Virus record (IMG/VR): IMGVR_UViG_2874933748_000006
Strand: one strand, 5' to 3'
Length of the DNA stretch: 18,304 bases
Origin: a virus
Lineage: Duplodnaviria > Heunggongvirae > Uroviricota > Caudoviricetes
Below the pieces are notes generated by a model. It searched no databases. It had not been told where the DNA came from and worked only from the letters and a program-made list of their open reading frames with translations. Each line of letters opens with the position of its first letter. Position 1 is the stretch's first letter. Position numbers and translations under genes: made by a program. Below are positions 10,753 through 17,607 of this stretch, one piece after another.

Positions 10753-11163
10753 ATGATGATTAATGTTAACGGGCGACCCGTGTCGACCGGGGCTTCGATC
10801 GACCTTCTGACGCGTGCTGTGATTATTTCGCTTTTTACATGGCGGCGTGCCGGGCGTGATGATGCACCACGGATATTTGGATGGTGGGGGGATACCTGGC
10901 CTGCGGTTCAGAATGATCGCACGGGGTCGCGTTTGTATCTGTTGCGACGCAGCAAGCTGACAAATAAAACCCCGCAGCTTGCCAGAGATTATGTCCGTGA
11001 GGCGCTGGCGTGGATGGTGGAGGATGGTGTTGCTTCCCGTCTTGATATTAACGCTGTCCGGACCGGGACAGACTCGCTGGCACTTGCCATTACCATTTAC
11101 CAGCGTGACGGCAATATTCACAACATTATTTTTGATGATATCTGGAGTGAACTGAATGGCTGA
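10753..11163 (+). CDS. Mu gp46-like baseplate protein
   Basis: A 136-aa ORF with the GWWGD and SRLYLL motifs typical of the phage GP46 family, in the expected position between V and J. Confidence 0.75.
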   Translation: MMINVNGRPVSTGASIDLLTRAVIISLFTWRRAGRDDAPRIFGWWGDTWPAVQNDRTGSRLYLLRRSKLTNKTPQLARDYVREALAWMVEDGVASRLDINAVRTGTDSLALAITIYQRDGNIHNIIFDDIWSELNG

Positions 11164-11740
11164 CAGTCAGTTTTATCGCCCCGGCCTCCCGCAACTTATT
11201 TCTATGATCCGGAGCGATTTATTAACCCGCTTTGAGCAGGATACGCTGCTTCGTCGTATGGATGCGGAAGTGTATGCCCGTGTACAGGCTGCAGCCGTAC
11301 ACACGTTGTACGGGTATATCGATTATCTTGCCAGAAATCTGTTACCGGACGTGTGTGATGAAGACTGGCTGTACCGGCACGCCAGAATCAAACGCTGCCC
11401 GCGAAAAGAAGCGGTGGCAGCCCGGGGATTTGTGCGCTGGGATGGCGTAGAGGGGACGCCGGTATTGCCAGCGGGAACGCAGATCCAGCGTGATAATCAG
11501 GTGACCTTTACCACGACGGCGACGGTGACCGCAGCCGATGGTCTTCTCCGGGTGCCTGTTGTGGCAGACGAACCGGGATCGGCGGGGAATACGGATGATG
11601 GTATTGCCATGCAACTGGGAACACCCGTCAGTGGTCTGCCGTCCACAGGGTACGCTGACACCATTACAGACGGTGAAGATATTGAAAATCTGGAAATATG
11701 GCGTGCCCGCGTTATGGAACGTTATTACTACATTCCACAG

Positions 11741-11749
11741 GGGGGCGCA
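11741..11749. repeat. IS1 target-site duplication (GGGGGCGCA), left copy
   Basis: A 9-bp direct repeat identical to 12518-12526, flanking IS1 copy 2. Confidence 0.9.
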
Positions 11750-11764
11750 GGTAATGACTCCAAC

Positions 11765-12268
11765 TTATTGATAGTGTTTTATGTTCAGATAATGCCCGAT
11801 GACTTTGTCATGCAGCTCCACCGATTTTGAGAACGACAGCGACTTCCGTCCCAGCCGTGCCAGGTGCTGCCTCAGATTCAGGTTATGCCGCTCAATTCGC
11901 TGCGTATATCGCTTGCTGATTACGTGCAGCTTTCCCTTCAGGCGGGATTCATACAGCGGCCAGCCATCCGTCATCCATATCACCACGTCAAAGGGTGACA
12001 GCAGGCTCATAAGACGCCCCAGCGTCGCCATAGTGCGTTCACCGAATACGTGCGCAACAACCGTCTTCCGGAGACTGTCATACGCGTAAAACAGCCAGCG
12101 CTGGCGCGATTTAGCCCCGACATAGCCCCACTGTTCGTCCATTTCCGCGCAGACGATGACGTCACTGCCCGGCTGTATGCGCGAGGTTACCGACTGCGGC
12201 CTGAGTTTTTTAAGTGACGTAAAATCGTGTTGAGGCCAACGCCCATAATGCGTGCAGTTGCCCGGCAT
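11765..12268 (-). CDS. insB: IS1 InsB frame (expressed as InsAB' by -1 frameshift at 12205-12211)
   Basis: An intact 167-aa ORF in the -1 frame relative to insA, overlapping its 3' end, as in canonical IS1. Confidence 0.9.
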
Positions 12269-12462
12269 CCAACGCCATTCATGGCCATATCAATGATTTT
12301 CTGGTGCGTACCGGGTTGAGAAGCGGTGTAAGTGAACTGCAGTTGCCATGTTTTACGGCAGTGAGAGCAGAGATAGCGCTGATGTCCGGCAGTGCTTTTG
12401 CCGTTACGCACCACCCCGTCAGTAGCTGAACAGGAGGGACAGCTGATAGAAACAGAAGCCAC
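12187..12462 (-). CDS. insA: IS1 InsA
   Basis: A 91-aa ORF identical in translation to insA of copy 1. Confidence 0.95.
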
Positions 12463-12517
12463 TGGAGCACCTCAAAAACACCATCATACACTAAATCAGT
12501 AAGTTGGCAGCATCACC

Positions 12518-12526
12518 GGGGGCGCA
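12518..12526. repeat. IS1 target-site duplication (GGGGGCGCA), right copy
   Basis: Identical to 11741-11749. Confidence 0.9.
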
Positions 12527-13014
12527 GACCCTGATTATGTTATCTGGGCGAAAGAAGTTCAGGGTATTAACCGTGCATGGACTTTCAGACACTGGAAAGG
12601 CACTGGAACGGTTGGCGTGATGGTGGCGACAAACGATCCGGAACGCCCGGCCCCGGATGAAAGCGTGATTAACGCAGTCAGGGACCACATCCTTCCTCTG
12701 GCACCTGTTGCCGGAAGCGGATTGTATGTATTCGGTGCCACAGAAAAAGTCATCCCGATGACGATTGCATTATCGAAAGACACACCGCAGATCAGGACTG
12801 CAATAAAAGCAGAGCTGAATGCACTGATGTTACGGGATGGTGTGCCAGAGGGGCGTATGTATCTGTCCAGAATCAGTGAGGCCATCAGTTTGTCTGCTGG
12901 TGAAGTGGCCCACCGGTTAATCGTCCCTTCATCGGATATTGACCTGGGGGAGACCGAGCTTCCGGTGCTCGGCGAGATCACCTGGCAGGCTTATGACCCG
13001 GCAAGGAGTAAATA

Positions 13015-13605
13015 ATGGATTCGTTACAGGATGATTATACAAAGCTGCTGTACGGACTGATGCCGCCGGGGCCTGCATGGTCAGATACCGACGGTGTACT
13101 TGACGGTCTGGCACCATCGCTTGTGCGTGTTCACCAGCGGGCTGATGAACTGGTGATTGAAATCGATCCCGGTCAGTCCACAGAGCTGATTGAACGTTAT
13201 GAAGAATTGTATGGTTTACCTGATTCCTGTTCCCCTGTCGGAACCCAGACATTACGCCAGCGTCAGCAACGTCTTGAAGCAAAAGCCAATGTGGCTGGTG
13301 GCATAAATGAGCAGTTCTTCCTGGATCAGCTTGAGGCGCTGGGATATACCGGCGTAACGATCGAACAGTTCCAGCACTTGGATGCAAGCCCCGATCCGGA
13401 ATGGGGAGATCGCTGGCGTTATTTCTGGCGTGTGACGTTGCCGATGGATGCCGGTGCTCAGTGGCAGACATGCACGGACGCCTGCAACACACCGATCCGG
13501 ACGTGGGGGGATACGGTTGCGGAGTGCGTGATTAATAAATTATGTCCGTCACACACCGTCGTTTTATTTTCCTATCCAGATGAGGATGAAGATGCACAGG
13601 ATTGA
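13015..13605 (+). CDS. Mu gp48-like tail protein (DUF2313 / P2 gpI-like)
   Basis: A 196-aa ORF whose start overlaps the J stop (TAATG). The N-terminal LLYGLMPPGPAW motif and position after J fit the gp48 family. Confidence 0.7.
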   Translation: MDSLQDDYTKLLYGLMPPGPAWSDTDGVLDGLAPSLVRVHQRADELVIEIDPGQSTELIERYEELYGLPDSCSPVGTQTLRQRQQRLEAKANVAGGINEQFFLDQLEALGYTGVTIEQFQHLDASPDPEWGDRWRYFWRVTLPMDAGAQWQTCTDACNTPIRTWGDTVAECVINKLCPSHTVVLFSYPDEDEDAQD

Positions 13606-14632
13606 TACGCTGACTGCGGTAAAAGATAAGTTTGGTCCGGGTAAGAACGGATTTACTGACGGAAATCTTCGCACAGGACGTCTTGCTACCTGGCTGAACA
13701 GTGCCATGTGGAATGCCATTCAGGAGGAAATCTGTGGTGTCATTGAGAAGGCCGGGATAGAACTGAATAAAGAAGAACACGACCAGCTATATAAGGCTAT
13801 ATTATTGCTGGTGGGCGGTGCAATTAACGAAGAGGCATTGCTGATAAAAAATAACCTTTCGGATGTGGAAGACAGGGATGAGGCTGTTGAAAACCTCGGA
13901 TTAAAACCCACGGTGGATAAGGCAAAAAATGCCGTTCAGCGTGATGGCGACACCATGACCGGAGAGCTGAAAATCCGTGGTGTTAATGCGCTGAGGATTT
14001 TCAACGAAGCTTTTGGCCTGATTTTTCGTCGTTCGGAAGAGTGCCTGCACCTTATTCCCACCAGTGAAGGTCAGGGGGAAAATGGCGATATTGGTCCCCT
14101 GCGCCCGTTCACCATTAATCTGCGGACGGGTGAAATATCCATGTCGCATAAAGTGTCTGTTGGCGGTGGTTCGCAGGTCAATGGTGCGCTGGGTATCGGC
14201 GTTCAGAACGCCCTGGGGGGGAATTCAATTGTTCTTGGTGATAATGACACCGGATTCAAACAGAATGGTGATGGCCTGCTGGATGTTTATGCCAATAGCG
14301 TGCATGTGTTGCGTTTTCAGAGTGGCAGTATCCAGAGTAATAAAGCTGTAAACGTTACAGGACGGGTAACACCGTCAGACTACGGAAACTTTGATGCCCG
14401 TTACCAGCAGCGAAATGGTGGCGTGCAGGATGTGCGGTATGGTTATGAAATGTATTACACCCCCGGCAGTAACACCGTTTCGTGGACATTTCGCTCACCT
14501 TCGGGACACGGGCTGTCAGGGATATCGATATCGGATACCGGCCGTAACTCAGCGGATAACGTCAACGGCGTGTATTACCGACCGCTGCAAAAACTGATTA
14601 ATGGCACCTGGTATAACGTAGCGAGTATTTAA
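13592..14632 (+). CDS. Tail fibre protein with a P2 gpH-like C-terminal domain
   Basis: The motifs AVQRDGDTMTGEL, NALGGNSIVLGDNDTGFKQNGDGLLDVYANS and the C-terminal YRPLQKLINGTWYNVASI resemble the C-terminal part of P2 H-type tail fibres as I recall them. Start chosen at ATG 13592 (GAGGA upstream); in-frame ATGs also exist at 13580 and 13586. Confidence 0.75.
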   Translation: MHRIDTLTAVKDKFGPGKNGFTDGNLRTGRLATWLNSAMWNAIQEEICGVIEKAGIELNKEEHDQLYKAILLLVGGAINEEALLIKNNLSDVEDRDEAVENLGLKPTVDKAKNAVQRDGDTMTGELKIRGVNALRIFNEAFGLIFRRSEECLHLIPTSEGQGENGDIGPLRPFTINLRTGEISMSHKVSVGGGSQVNGALGIGVQNALGGNSIVLGDNDTGFKQNGDGLLDVYANSVHVLRFQSGSIQSNKAVNVTGRVTPSDYGNFDARYQQRNGGVQDVRYGYEMYYTPGSNTVSWTFRSPSGHGLSGISISDTGRNSADNVNGVYYRPLQKLINGTWYNVASI

Positions 14633-14634
14633 CA

Positions 14635-15180
14635 ATGTTGCATTTAAAAAATATTACGGCAGGTAATCCGAAAACCGCGGAATAATATCAGCTGACAAAA
14701 CAGTATGATGTCACCTGGCTTTTTTCGGAAGACGGCAAAAACTGGTATGAAGAACAGAAGAACTTTGCCAGTGACACCATAAAAATGGTTTACACCGGAG
14801 ACGGGCGCGTGGTGTGGGTCGGTAAGGATGTGACAGGCATTGAACCCCGTAACGCCAGTGTTATTGAAGTTCCTGATATTACCGCCAACCGCCGCATTAC
14901 CGCGCCGGGTTACTGGTTTTACCGCAATGATGAATTTGTCTTTGACTACAGACTCAAAGCGGAAGATGAGCGTGATGCCCTTCTGGCTCAGGTCAGTGCC
15001 CGGACAGGGGAATGGGAAGAAGACCTGCTGCTGGGGCTAATCAGCGACGAAGACCGGGAAAAACTGAAAGCGTACCGTATTTACGCGAAATCGCTGCAGG
15101 CGATGGATTTCAGCACCATCACTGATAAATCCTCATATAACGCCATTGAATGGTCCGTCTCTCCGGAAGGTTCTTCCTGA
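14635..15180 (+). pseudogene. Tail fibre assembly protein (Tfa) with an in-frame premature TAA at 14683-14685
   Basis: ATG at 14635 gives MLHLKNITAGNPKTAE, then TAA, then the frame continues YQLTKQYDVTWLFSEDGKNWYEEQ... to a C-terminus with the Tfa signature (KAYRIYAKSLQAMDFS...IEWSVSPE). The first in-frame ATG after the stop is at 14785. Confidence 0.7.
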
Positions 15181-15203
15181 TTTAATTTATCGCGAGAAAA
15201 ACT

Positions 15204-16472
15204 ATGTCTGTAGTGATATCAGGTGCGCTGACTGATGGCGCAGGCATCCCCATGTCCGGATGCCAGATTATTCTGAAATCCCGTGTAAACACCTCAGAAG
15301 TGGTGATGCGTACCAGGGCTGATGTAGTGACCGGAAATAACGGTGAATATTCGTTTGAGGCACAGGTCGGAAAATATTGCGTGTATCTGAAACGGGACTG
15401 GCGCGACGAGTACTGTGTTGGCGACATTGCTGTATACGACGACTCAAAGCCCGGCACGCTGAATGACTTTCTGATTGCTCCTGATGAGGGCGACCTGAAA
15501 CCGGATGTCGTCAAACGCTTTGAGGAAATGGTGGCGCAGGCGCAGCAGAGCGCCGGGGCCGCAGCCGGAAACGCACAGCAGACGGCGCAGGATGTGGCGG
15601 CAGCCGCAGGTTATGCCCGCGCAGCAGAGCAGGCCAAAAATGACATTGATGCTGCGCTGACCGGCACTCTGAAAACGGCTAACCATCTGTCTGAAATCGC
15701 AGCAGCAGGCGAAAAGGCACAACAGAAGTCCCGGGATAATCTGGGGCTGAAAAGTGCGGCCACGATGGAAGCACAGAGCGACATTTACGACCGGACAAAA
15801 GGCCGTCTGGCGATACCCGGCGCATTCGGCTTTGGGTGTGCTTTTCTGCCTGAAGATGTTATCCGTTTTGACACTAAGAGTGATTTCCTGGCCTGGGTAA
15901 GGAATGCGCTGCCAGGTGAATATTCCGTTGCTGGCCCCTACGACATCATCATACCCGACACACGGTTTGAAGGGGTGCTCAGCATCCGGTGGACTGATGC
16001 ACGCCCTGAGACAACAGAACCGAGGTACAGAGCCAAATCCCTTACTTTTTACGGCATTAACGGCCCCATTTATCACACCCGCTACTGCTACTGGCCCATA
16101 TCCAGACTGACTGGCTGGGTGAAAATAAATATAACCACAGAAGATATTATTTACAGAATCGTGGCGAGCTCTGTCTGCAACAGATGGGGAGACCCTGACA
16201 TTGGCGGGCTGATTATTGCTGCGTACCAGGGAGAAGCTGACGGTGATAAAGTCATCAGACTTGTCAGGGGGCAGTCATACAGAGGCTCACGACTGGGACC
16301 GGTGGGGATTTCAGTGCCCAGTACTCCCACCGGAACGTATATAGCATCCCCACAATTTTTCATTACGGGATGTTCAGAGCATTCATTACCGGGGTCATAT
16401 AGCGCCCTGTCCGGGGTGCCGGATGCTCATGTCTCTGGCGCAATGCCCGGGCTTTTTATTCGCACATCGTGA
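15204..16472 (+). CDS. Side tail fibre protein with a lambda Stf-like N-terminal domain
   Basis: The N-terminus (MSVVISGALTDGAGIPMSGCQIILKSRVNTSEVV...VYDDSKPGTLNDFL) closely matches the lambda Stf / prophage tail-fibre N-terminal domain as I recall it, followed by an Ala/Gln-rich segment and a distinct C-terminal domain. Confidence 0.75.
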   Translation: MSVVISGALTDGAGIPMSGCQIILKSRVNTSEVVMRTRADVVTGNNGEYSFEAQVGKYCVYLKRDWRDEYCVGDIAVYDDSKPGTLNDFLIAPDEGDLKPDVVKRFEEMVAQAQQSAGAAAGNAQQTAQDVAAAAGYARAAEQAKNDIDAALTGTLKTANHLSEIAAAGEKAQQKSRDNLGLKSAATMEAQSDIYDRTKGRLAIPGAFGFGCAFLPEDVIRFDTKSDFLAWVRNALPGEYSVAGPYDIIIPDTRFEGVLSIRWTDARPETTEPRYRAKSLTFYGINGPIYHTRYCYWPISRLTGWVKINITTEDIIYRIVASSVCNRWGDPDIGGLIIAAYQGEADGDKVIRLVRGQSYRGSRLGPVGISVPSTPTGTYIASPQFFITGCSEHSLPGSYSALSGVPDAHVSGAMPGLFIRTS

Positions 16473-16482
16473 GGAATGCACC

Positions 16483-17046
16483 GTGGAAATTAAAAAAATC
16501 ATTAATCCCCGTTATACCGAAAGTGGCGCAGTAGACTGTGACGTTTTTTTTGACGACAGGGACCAGGCAGTCCCCTACACAGCCACCGCTGATGATGTCG
16601 CACCGACGGGTCAGCGAATCTGGCAGGAACTGCAAAGTGGCAAATGGGGTGAGATAGCCCCATTCACTGTGACACCAGAAATGCTGGAAGCGGCCAGAGA
16701 GGCCAGACGTCAGGAAATTGAAGCATGGCGCACAGAACAGGAGGCGAAGCCGTTCACGTTTGAATGGAATGGTCGTATCTGGAATGCTGGCCCCGACTCA
16801 CTGGGCCGCCTGTCCCCGGTAGTCATGCTGGCAAAATCTGTCACAGCACAAACGCATATGGCGTGGGGTGATGCCGATAATCAGCAGGTGAAACTGTCGA
16901 TGCCGGAACTGGAAGAACTGGCGGCAGCAATGGTGCAGGCGCAGGTCGATCGCAACGATGAGATTTATCGCCGTCAGCGTGAAATGAAAGAGGAGCTGAG
17001 TGGTCTGGAGGATTTGGGAACAATTAGAGCGTTTGATGTTACGTAA
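16483..17046 (+). CDS. Putative tail fibre chaperone / assembly protein (DUF4376-like, family uncertain)
   Basis: GTG at 16483 is preceded by GAGGA (the upstream ATG at 16423 lies inside the fibre gene). The gene sits immediately downstream of the fibre gene and lacks the classical Tfa C-terminal motif. Family assignment is from memory and not verified. Confidence 0.45.
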   Translation: MEIKKIINPRYTESGAVDCDVFFDDRDQAVPYTATADDVAPTGQRIWQELQSGKWGEIAPFTVTPEMLEAAREARRQEIEAWRTEQEAKPFTFEWNGRIWNAGPDSLGRLSPVVMLAKSVTAQTHMAWGDADNQQVKLSMPELEELAAAMVQAQVDRNDEIYRRQREMKEELSGLEDLGTIRAFDVT

Positions 17047-17095
17047 TTGGTAAGCTGCATCGTGTTAAATTGTTACCCTTATTTACAACTAGAAA

Positions 17096-17126
17096 AGCCT
17101 CTGACTTCATAATCAGAGGCTTTTTT
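17096..17126 (+). terminator. Rho-independent terminator closing the tail-fibre operon (possibly bidirectional)
   Basis: Perfect 9-bp stem agcctctga (17096-17104), 8-nt loop, tcagaggct (17113-17121), then a T run to 17126. An A-rich tract on the other side would give a U-rich tail for transcripts arriving from ssrA. Confidence 0.8.
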
Positions 17127-17244
17127 GAAATGCACGTGCATTTTGCGTGTATATTTTTGTCTTTTTCTGGTCCGCTTACTGTCTGGTCAGTGTCCGTAAG
17201 TGACTGTTTTTATAGTCTCTGTCCGGTTGCAGTCCTGTCAAAAG

Positions 17245-17607
17245 TGGTGGAGCTGGCGGGAGTTGAACCCGCGTCCGAAATTCCTACATCCTCGGTACTA
17301 CATGCTTAGTCAGTCTTTACATTCGCTTGCCAGCTGCGGACGGACACGCCACTAACAAACTAGCCTGATTAAGTTTTAACGCTTCAACCCCAGGCAGGGC
17401 TTCCACGCGATCTCTTTTGGGTTTGACCTCTCTTGATCCCCGTCCTAAGAGCGGAGGCTAGGGAGAGAGGGCTCTAAGCAGGTTATTAAGCTGCTAAAGC
17501 GTAGTTTTCGTCGTTTGCGACTATTTTTTGCGGCTTTTTACGAGGCCAACCGCCCCTCGGCATGCACCTTGGGTTTCGCAAATCCCGTCGAATCCAGAAT
17601 CAGCCCC
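17245..17607 (-). ncRNA. ssrA: tmRNA (SsrA), 363 nt
   Basis: The reverse complement starts GGGGCTGATTCTGGATTCGACGGG and ends GGTTCAACTCCCGCCAGCTCCACCA. It contains the tag reading frame GCAAACGACGAAAACTACGCTTTAGCAGCTTAA (ANDENYALAA), matching E. coli tmRNA from memory. Confidence 0.95.

Follow-up and report, generated by a model that had tools for sequence, protein, structure and literature searches.

Two non-equivalent tail fibre cassettes at the decayed right end of what is probably a phiP27-like prophage at ssrA

We analysed a DNA stretch of 18,304 nucleotides (nt) from a tailed phage of the Caudoviricetes (IMG/VR record IMGVR_UViG_2874933748_000006), the whole of which is called the window here, and concentrated on the end of its tail gene module, where two tail fibre genes, each followed by the gene for a chaperone, lie downstream of Mu-type baseplate genes. 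An earlier note on this DNA, made from the sequence alone, had described the two pairs as unrelated, co-directional fibre and chaperone sets following a Mu-like baseplate. Domain searches bore this out, since all four genes were placed on the + strand and both large open reading frames (ORFs) encode fibre proteins, with matches to phrog_6859 and 5yvq for the first and to PF08400 and 9e7m for the second. The last baseplate gene and the two cassettes are laid out as follows, with lengths in amino acids (aa).

13015..13605, + strand: Mu gp48 / YmfQ-type baseplate wedge gene, the final baseplate gene ahead of the fibres (PF10076, E 2.3e-25; phrog_203, E 4.8e-73)
13592..14632, + strand: fibre 1, a Mu S-like baseplate-anchored tail fibre of 346 aa (phrog_6859, E 1.6e-209; PDB 5yvq, E 2.5e-25)
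14635..15180, + strand: Tfa-type tail fibre assembly chaperone, a pseudogene (Caudo_TAP, PF02413, E 7.3e-21; TAA at codon 17, 14683-14685)
15204..16472, + strand: fibre 2, an accessory side-fibre type protein of 422 aa (PF08400, E 2.4e-63; PDB 9e7m, E 4.6e-17; PDB 7kjk, E 1.1e-6; phrog_2636, E 7.8e-205)
16483..17046, + strand: putative DUF4376 tail fibre chaperone for fibre 2 (PF14301, E 1.5e-16; phrog_1141, E 3.4e-88)

Homologues of Mu gp44-48 were identified 5' of the fibre genes by Pfam and PHROG matches (gp46 as PF07409, gp47 as Baseplate_J and gp48 as PF10076), and a sheath gene at 2166-3662, also found by its PHROG match, places them in the context of a contractile tail. The gp48 gene shows 96-99.7% nt identity to its counterparts in phage phiP27, in the prophage of E. 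coli C311 and in FDAARGOS_944. Spacing within the fibre region is tight: 23 nt separate the Tfa stop from the start of fibre 2, and 10 nt separate the fibre-2 stop from the DUF4376 start.

Fibre 1, the length of which was counted from the start codon used in relatives, matched phrog_6859 ('tail fiber protein') over its full length, and the structure of the Mu S fibre (5yvq) matched both its N-terminal and its C-terminal parts. An N-terminal anchor spans aa 1 to ∼100 and is followed by an NLGLK motif at aa 101 (nt 13892-13906). The N-terminal 110 aa are only 22% identical to P2-like H, and are therefore unrelated to it; no Pfam match to DUF3751 was found in fibre 1. By sequence, fibre 1 is nearer to Mu S than to P2 H, and the earlier description of it as a P2 H-like fibre with a Tfa-type chaperone holds for the chaperone (PF02413) and not for the fibre. 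Mu S binds the lipopolysaccharide (LPS) core, and the resemblance of the fibre-1 tip to Mu S makes LPS a plausible receptor. The premature stop that had been noticed in the first chaperone gene was confirmed as a single in-frame TAA at codon 17. The codon reads CAA in five intact relatives, indicating that the stop arose by one C-to-T change at 14683.

Fibre 2 is built differently. Its first 131 aa (nt 15204-15596) form an StfN collar domain (PF08400, 'prophage tail fibre N-terminal') that scored 212.6 bits against a cut-off of 26.6, and the solved StfN collar domain of Ur-lambda (PDB 9e7m) matched the protein with 46% identity over 92 aa. Beyond StfN lie an Ala/Gln-rich linker, an NLGLK motif at aa 179 (nt 15738-15752) and a C-terminal receptor-binding domain of ∼240 aa (nt 15738-16472), in which searches of Pfam and the PDB found no match to a gp37/Stf tip. 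The family of this C-terminal domain also occurs on other anchors, with a DUF3751 anchor in P0031 and in lytic phages such as Av-05 (34% identity). NLGLK is present in both fibres at the boundary between the anchor or shaft and the distal domain, and homologues of the fibre-2 C-terminal domain that carry other N-termini align from exactly NLGLK onward. In these alignments the motif looks like a shared recombination joint.

The small protein encoded immediately 3' of fibre 2 scored 61.2 bits with PF14301, against a cut-off of 25. The longest ORF at this place runs from an ATG at 16423 to 17046; the start is likely the GTG at 16483, which follows GAGGAA and fits the N-termini of relatives. A Caudo_TAP chaperone such as lambda Tfa was not found 3' of fibre 2, the DUF4376 gene taking that place. 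The earlier assignment of a lambda Stf-like N-terminal domain and a DUF4376 chaperone to the second cassette is thus supported by PF08400, 9e7m and PF14301. Experiments have shown that DUF4376 proteins are needed as fibre chaperones, both in Alteromonas phage V22 (gp26/gp27) and for the H-fibre of Campylobacter CJIE1 (PMC7289586, PMC10579305, PMC7882524). By analogy with these two systems, in which alone the requirement has been demonstrated, the DUF4376 protein of the window would act as the fibre-2 chaperone.

A comparison across phages with different tail backbones showed that the two anchors behave differently. Identity of the fibre-1 anchor to that of the window was 97% in phiP27-type phages, 46% in SfV and 22% in the Rac-SA53 and P2 types, where the anchors are unrelated. 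The fibre-2 anchor, in contrast, was 85-90% identical in each of phiP27-type phages, Rac-SA53-type phages and the lambdoid siphophage prophage EC21Z-048, and 73% identical in the intact P2-like prophage OkiPb01704. Judged from these anchor sequences, the two cassettes are not equivalents: the anchor of fibre 1 tracks the type of baseplate and that of fibre 2 does not. No protein similarity was detectable between phiP27 and Rac-SA53 in head, neck, sheath, tube or baseplate, and the structural proteins that they share are limited to the distal part of fibre 1, Tfa, fibre 2 and the DUF4376 protein. A stable fibre-2 anchor across backbones, together with a variable fibre-1 anchor, indicates that cassette 2 is a portable accessory-fibre unit. 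Literature searches returned nothing useful on Rac-SA53, and one paper for PF08400, on collagen-like proteins.

The positions of cassette 2 in these genomes are in line with such portability. In lambdoid EC21Z-048 (locus L063, 3776-9387) cassette 2 comes after gpJ, Lom, stf and a tfa remnant, in that order. This prophage carries two StfN-domain fibres in tandem, its own stf being a pseudogene with an anchor 34% identical to that of the window, and the second having an 88% identical anchor followed by a DUF4376 gene. In OkiPb01704 (L065, 9001-11876), an StfN-domain fibre of 757 aa and a DUF4376 gene follow late gene D, 6 kb from H-G, and both this prophage and a second P2-like one (L064) have the pair besides a normal H-G fibre cassette 6 kb upstream. 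Cassette 2 was also found at the uspF integration site, and in every context examined it is the final unit of the late operon, ahead of the prophage end or of cargo genes. Of 5426 complete E. coli genomes, 105 had the Tfa-to-StfN junction, at 85-99% nt identity, and only 27 had the junction between gp48 and fibre 1.

These data bear on whether the two cassettes could be mutually exclusive alternatives for one baseplate socket, that is, a fixed form of the switching between S and S' in Mu or of that in P1. Both are fibre and chaperone pairs beside a Mu-type baseplate, and alternative fibres are known from the related systems of e14 and Mu. However, the anchors are unrelated folds (Mu S-type in one, an Ig-like StfN collar domain in the other), only that of fibre 1 co-varies with the type of baseplate, cassette 2 lies 6 kb from H-G in the P2-like prophage, and neither inverted repeats of any substance nor an invertase was found. 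We therefore hold this explanation to be improbable. The comparison with the alternative fibres of Mu and P1 that the earlier note had drawn is misleading for the same reason, as fibres with unrelated anchors presumably occupy different virion sites simultaneously.

The observation that the locus is not an invertible segment was nevertheless correct. Inverted repeats in the window are short and imperfect (the best being 18 nt at 89% and 27 nt at 74% complementarity), and such repeats are often chance matches; no Gin/Pin-type invertase was found in the window, the recombinase ORFs of which are all transposases of insertion sequences (IS). There is also no alternative fibre set on the opposite strand of the window. 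Without meaningful inverted repeats or an invertase gene in the window, an invertible segment was rejected.

Two features downstream of cassette 2 mark the end of the operon and of the prophage.

17090..17127, + strand: intrinsic-terminator hairpin with a U-run, which ends the late operon after cassette 2
17245..17607, - strand: ssrA (tmRNA), identified with ARAGORN, at the 3' end of which the prophage is integrated

The hairpin was missed by a consensus terminator scan and was confirmed by folding; the segment 17040-17135, which holds it, folds at -24.2 kcal/mol (z -3.85), and 0 of 200 shuffled sequences were as stable. A consensus scan of 12900-17400 found no promoter-like sites, where 4.7 would be expected by chance. 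Given the tight spacing, the absence of promoter-like sites from the scan and the position of the sole strong terminator past cassette 2, we infer that both cassettes are co-transcribed with the tail genes in intact relatives. The DUF4376 stop lies 199 nt from ssrA, smpB is also present, and both the spacing and the site are identical in E. coli C311. The presence of tmRNA and smpB so close to the final phage gene identifies the window as the right end of an ssrA-integrated prophage.

Analysis of relatives showed that this arrangement is not peculiar to the window. The tail genes are 96% nt identical to those of the intact prophage of C311 at the same ssrA site, and FDAARGOS_944 has the same four genes at another integration site. 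In phiP27 (NC_003356), genes L54-L57 have exactly the same four-gene order just ahead of attR, with 88.9% nt identity over 65% of the fibre region. Synteny extends over the phiP27-like tail module, the order sheath, tube, tape measure protein, gpN/P/45/46/47/48, fibre, Tfa, PF08400 fibre and DUF4376 being that of phiP27 L44-L57. This layout was thus already known from phiP27, the sequence of which dates from 2002, and is annotated as a matter of routine in E. coli and Shigella genomes; the window itself offers nothing new in this respect. Since the four genes are likewise separate ORFs in C311, FDAARGOS_944 and phiP27, a single fibre locus split by mutation, which the earlier note had named as one finding that would overturn its view, was rejected.

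We surveyed IMG/VR for contigs encoding gp48 at 97-100% identity and took as informative the 22 loci that extend past Tfa. An StfN fibre was present in 20 of these, along with the DUF4376 gene where the contig reaches it. Of the two without cassette 2, L041 is a broken copy running into host DNA, and L025 has one cassette followed by an IpaH-like NEL effector gene (11386-13689, minus strand). IpaH/NEL-type type III effector genes lie directly 3' of the fibre genes in relatives of both kinds, after a single cassette in L025 and after cassette 2 in L002 (10392-12033). A sister group, with gp48 at 93% identity, had only a 3' remnant of the DUF4376 gene past Tfa, and no fibre 2, in all seven informative loci. 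In E. coli B7A (L007, 10657-10804) the fibre-2 gene is reduced to its first 42 nt, which run into the final ∼115 nt of the DUF4376 gene directly past Tfa, and a similar deletion scar was seen in L048, L049, L053, L054, L057, L058 and L060. The sister lineage of the B7A type also has an additional ORF of 349 aa that separates gp48 from fibre 1. Only cassette 1 is present in SfV, which has a Mu-type tail too but is more distantly related.

The prevalence of the StfN fibre in the informative loci and the deletion scar in the sister group indicate that the four-gene state is ancestral and was secondarily lost. On this comparative sequence evidence, the four-gene order is ancestral to the phiP27-like lineage, both cassettes included, and its loss in the sister group is secondary. 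The modular acquisition of a second fibre that the earlier note had suggested is borne out in that cassette 2 is portable and occurs on four tail backbones; it does not apply to this prophage, which did not acquire the cassette but inherited an ancestral layout. The same data bear on a possible origin of cassette 2 as the leftover of another, lambdoid prophage once resident at ssrA. StfN is typical of lambdoid stf genes and the cassette does lie at the extreme end, beside the attachment site. It is, however, found inside the phiP27 genome ahead of attR and at other integration sites (FDAARGOS_944 and uspF), it starts 23 nt past Tfa at a junction shared by 105 genomes, and 20 of 22 informative relatives have it. 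We give this origin practically no credence, and phiP27 together with conservation at several integration sites effectively refutes it.

The window contains three insertion sequences, which define the extent of decay of this copy of the prophage.

889..2146, + strand: IS600 (99% identity to IS600; transposase PHROG matches; comparison with C311)
6565..7331, + strand: second IS1, between the tape measure gene and the gpN-like gene
11750..12517, - strand: IS1 inside the baseplate gp47/J gene (gp47 fragments 11156-11749 and 12518-13015)

IS600 stands in place of ∼3.5 kb which, from the content of C311, comprised the prohead protease gene in its 3' part and the genes for the major capsid protein, head-tail connector, head closure, tail terminator and DUF2635 protein. 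Capsid and neck genes are therefore gone from this prophage. The IS1 in gp47 was seen as a 777-bp insertion in the alignment with C311 and is flanked by a 9-bp target duplication (GGGGGCGCA, at 11741-11749 and 12518-12526). The second IS1 (region 6378-7755) runs in the opposite direction, and a small ORF at 7318-7713 (phrog_5586), also present in FDAARGOS_944, adjoins it. The two inverted IS1 copies lie 4.4 kb apart, and inversion of the baseplate block between them could occur.

With IS600, an IS1 that splits gp47, a second IS1 and a nonsense codon in Tfa, the element is not a complete, inducible phage genome. It is unable to make capsids, necks or baseplates, and neither fibre can be mounted on a particle of its own. 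The suggestion that the second cassette, being intact, may be the functional one therefore fails: no particle can be built by an element that has lost its capsid and neck genes to IS600 and whose gp47 is split by IS1. For the intactness of cassette 2, the best explanation is that decay has yet to reach it.

We considered whether cassette 2 is instead kept by selection in Shigella, as a recombination reservoir for superinfecting phages or for use by another resident prophage or satellite. The exact fibre-2 protein occurs in 723 blocks of a public index, and it was 100% identical in all ten genomes that we sampled, while fibre 1 and the DUF4376 gene had suffered further damage in some (extra lesions in L014, L015 and L021, with fibre-1 gene calls of 252 or 215 aa and a DUF4376 gene call of 121 aa). 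These genomes were, however, sampled by the exact fibre-2 sequence, which forces 100% identity, and identity is expected without selection in a clonal lineage; moreover, some genomes already have a truncated DUF4376 partner, and the scan found no promoter. Maintenance by selection therefore appears very unlikely to us. The IS1 junctions in gp47 and the Tfa pseudogene were identical in 10 of the 10 genomes, and the sources of identical proteins name Shigella sonnei. These data mark the element as a cryptic prophage that is fixed in a clonal lineage of Shigella, probably S. sonnei; a literature search on S. sonnei, ssrA and prophage returned nothing useful. In two of the ten genomes, L013 and L017 (11927-14693), ssrA and smpB do not follow the DUF4376 gene; their place is taken by two ORFs that lack annotation and resemble those of IS600 in size (272 and 82 aa), along with a phage integrase and early genes, which suggests an IS-mediated rearrangement in some strains.

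Taken together, these results lead us to conclude, with good though not full confidence, that the window holds the decayed, cryptic right end of a phiP27-like temperate phage integrated at ssrA, its head of the HK97 type and its contractile tail of the Mu type, and that this right end encodes two non-equivalent fibre systems which would be mounted together in intact relatives. In such relatives, fibre 1 would sit on the baseplate wedge in the manner of Mu S and would need Tfa, and fibre 2 would be attached by its StfN domains, arranged in a ring that encircles an exposed tube-fold ring. Cryo-EM of Ur-lambda showed a collar of 12 StfN domains where the gpV and gpM rings meet, bearing four trimeric, non-essential fibres that speed adsorption (PMC12617516). 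In Vibrio phage XM1, the Ig-like N-terminal domain of gp40 binds gp4 and gp5 of the neck, the head-completion and tail-terminator rings, as six trimers (PMC10457771). By analogy with gp40, the neck is a possible site for a fibre-2 ring on a contractile tail. Both fibres would then be present at once on different sites of one virion, conferring two receptor specificities, as do J and Stf in lambda or the side fibres in T5.

Several points weigh against this proposal. The tube of a contractile tail is generally covered by the sheath, and lambda StfN, a closer homologue of fibre 2 than gp40, binds the distal tube, a site which by analogy would be sheathed on contractile tails. The match of XM1 gp40 to aa 1-198 of fibre 2 is distant (E 1.1e-6), its PF08400 score of 18.5 bits lying below the family cut-off, and it is because of this distance that we put forward neck mounting as a hypothesis; the docking site on a contractile tail is argued from analogy only. 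No paper describing fibre 2 as a virion component of any phiP27-like phage was found in our literature search. Cassette 2 is also dispensable, given that the two close relatives L025 and L041 are without it, and co-transcription with the tail genes is deduced from spacing and consensus scans only. A search of PDB sequences with phiP27 L42 and L43, for a docking partner among solved neck proteins, gave no meaningful match.

The chief alternative for docking is a branched fibre, in which fibre 2 would dock on fibre 1 or on its retained Tfa. Such docking would account for the joint transfer of fibre 2 and its chaperone with Tfa and the distal part of fibre 1, the sole proteins common to phiP27 and Rac-SA53. 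The conservation of the Tfa-to-StfN junction (105 E. coli genomes, 85-99% nt identity) also speaks for it. Moreover, Mu Tfa remains bound to its fibre according to a passage of a 2021 Campylobacter paper that cites North et al. 2019 (PMC7882524). The reading is weakened by OkiPb01704, where cassette 2 lies away from H-G and H is unrelated, and the solved homologues point elsewhere, as lambda StfN binds tube-fold rings and not a fibre (PMC12617516), and the XM1 protein binds neck proteins (PMC10457771). We consider a branched fibre unlikely, while giving it more weight than the other alternatives to co-mounted, separately anchored fibres.

A broader proposal, which goes beyond the two separately mounted fibres and which we offer only tentatively, is that the StfN fibre and its DUF4376 partner form a backbone-agnostic plug-in, the collar clamping any exposed tube-fold hexamer ring, with one anchor (73-90% identical) serving a lambdoid siphophage as well as three unrelated contractile tails, and being sited at the neck on the latter, like XM1 gp40. 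If this were true, phiP27-, Rac-SA53- and P2-like temperate coliphages would bear undescribed neck-mounted receptor-binding fibres. A near-invariant anchor across unrelated backbones would be a natural transferable route to a second receptor specificity, of value for host-range engineering and structural biology. The window itself is of little significance beyond correcting the idea of a functional second fibre, being one more IS-degraded cryptic Shigella prophage.

Among known systems, phiP27 is the closest. It shares with the window the order gp48, Mu S-like fibre, Tfa, PF08400 fibre, DUF4376 and phage end, with gp48 97% and StfN 89% identical. phiP27 is, however, complete, whereas the window has a Tfa pseudogene, an IS1-split gp47 and deleted head and neck genes. 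Fibre 2 is 490 aa long in phiP27 and 422 aa in the window, and the shaft and receptor-binding domain differ (∼40% aa identity). The window is integrated at ssrA, while the phiP27 record has its own attR.

The Stf fibre of Ur-lambda resembles fibre 2 in its homologous collar domain and in having a dedicated chaperone encoded downstream, and is known to be trimeric, accessory and non-essential (PMC12617516). It differs in belonging to a non-contractile tail, in its Caudo_TAP chaperone and in its OmpC-binding gp37/Stf tip, where the window has a DUF4376 protein and an unrelated distal domain. As the tail of the window is contractile, a junction of the lambda type between tube and distal tail protein would be sheathed.

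XM1 gp40 (PDB 7KJK) aligns with aa 1-198 of fibre 2 over its Ig-like N-terminal domain and coiled coil, and XM1 is like phiP27-type phages in having a contractile tail and separate baseplate receptor-binding proteins. Unlike fibre 2, gp40 has a tailspike C-terminus and, by gene number, is encoded away from tail genes gp5-gp18; neck docking has been shown for XM1 only. The fibres of V22 and CJIE1, which share a DUF4376 chaperone with fibre 2, have other anchors (DUF3751 in CJIE1) and no StfN domain.

Cassette 1 is comparable to Mu S-U, with a Mu S-homologous fibre and a Tfa/U-type chaperone after the gp44-48 baseplate genes, the chaperone of the window being a pseudogene. The G segment of Mu with S'-U', and the systems of P1 and e14, have inverted repeats and Gin/Pin, unlike the window, the second fibre of which is not an equivalent of S'. 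SfV (orf21-orf22) is similar to the window in its Mu-type baseplate, homologous gp48, fibre-1 anchor (46% identity) and Tfa, but has a single cassette, and carries O-antigen modification genes where cassette 2 would be.

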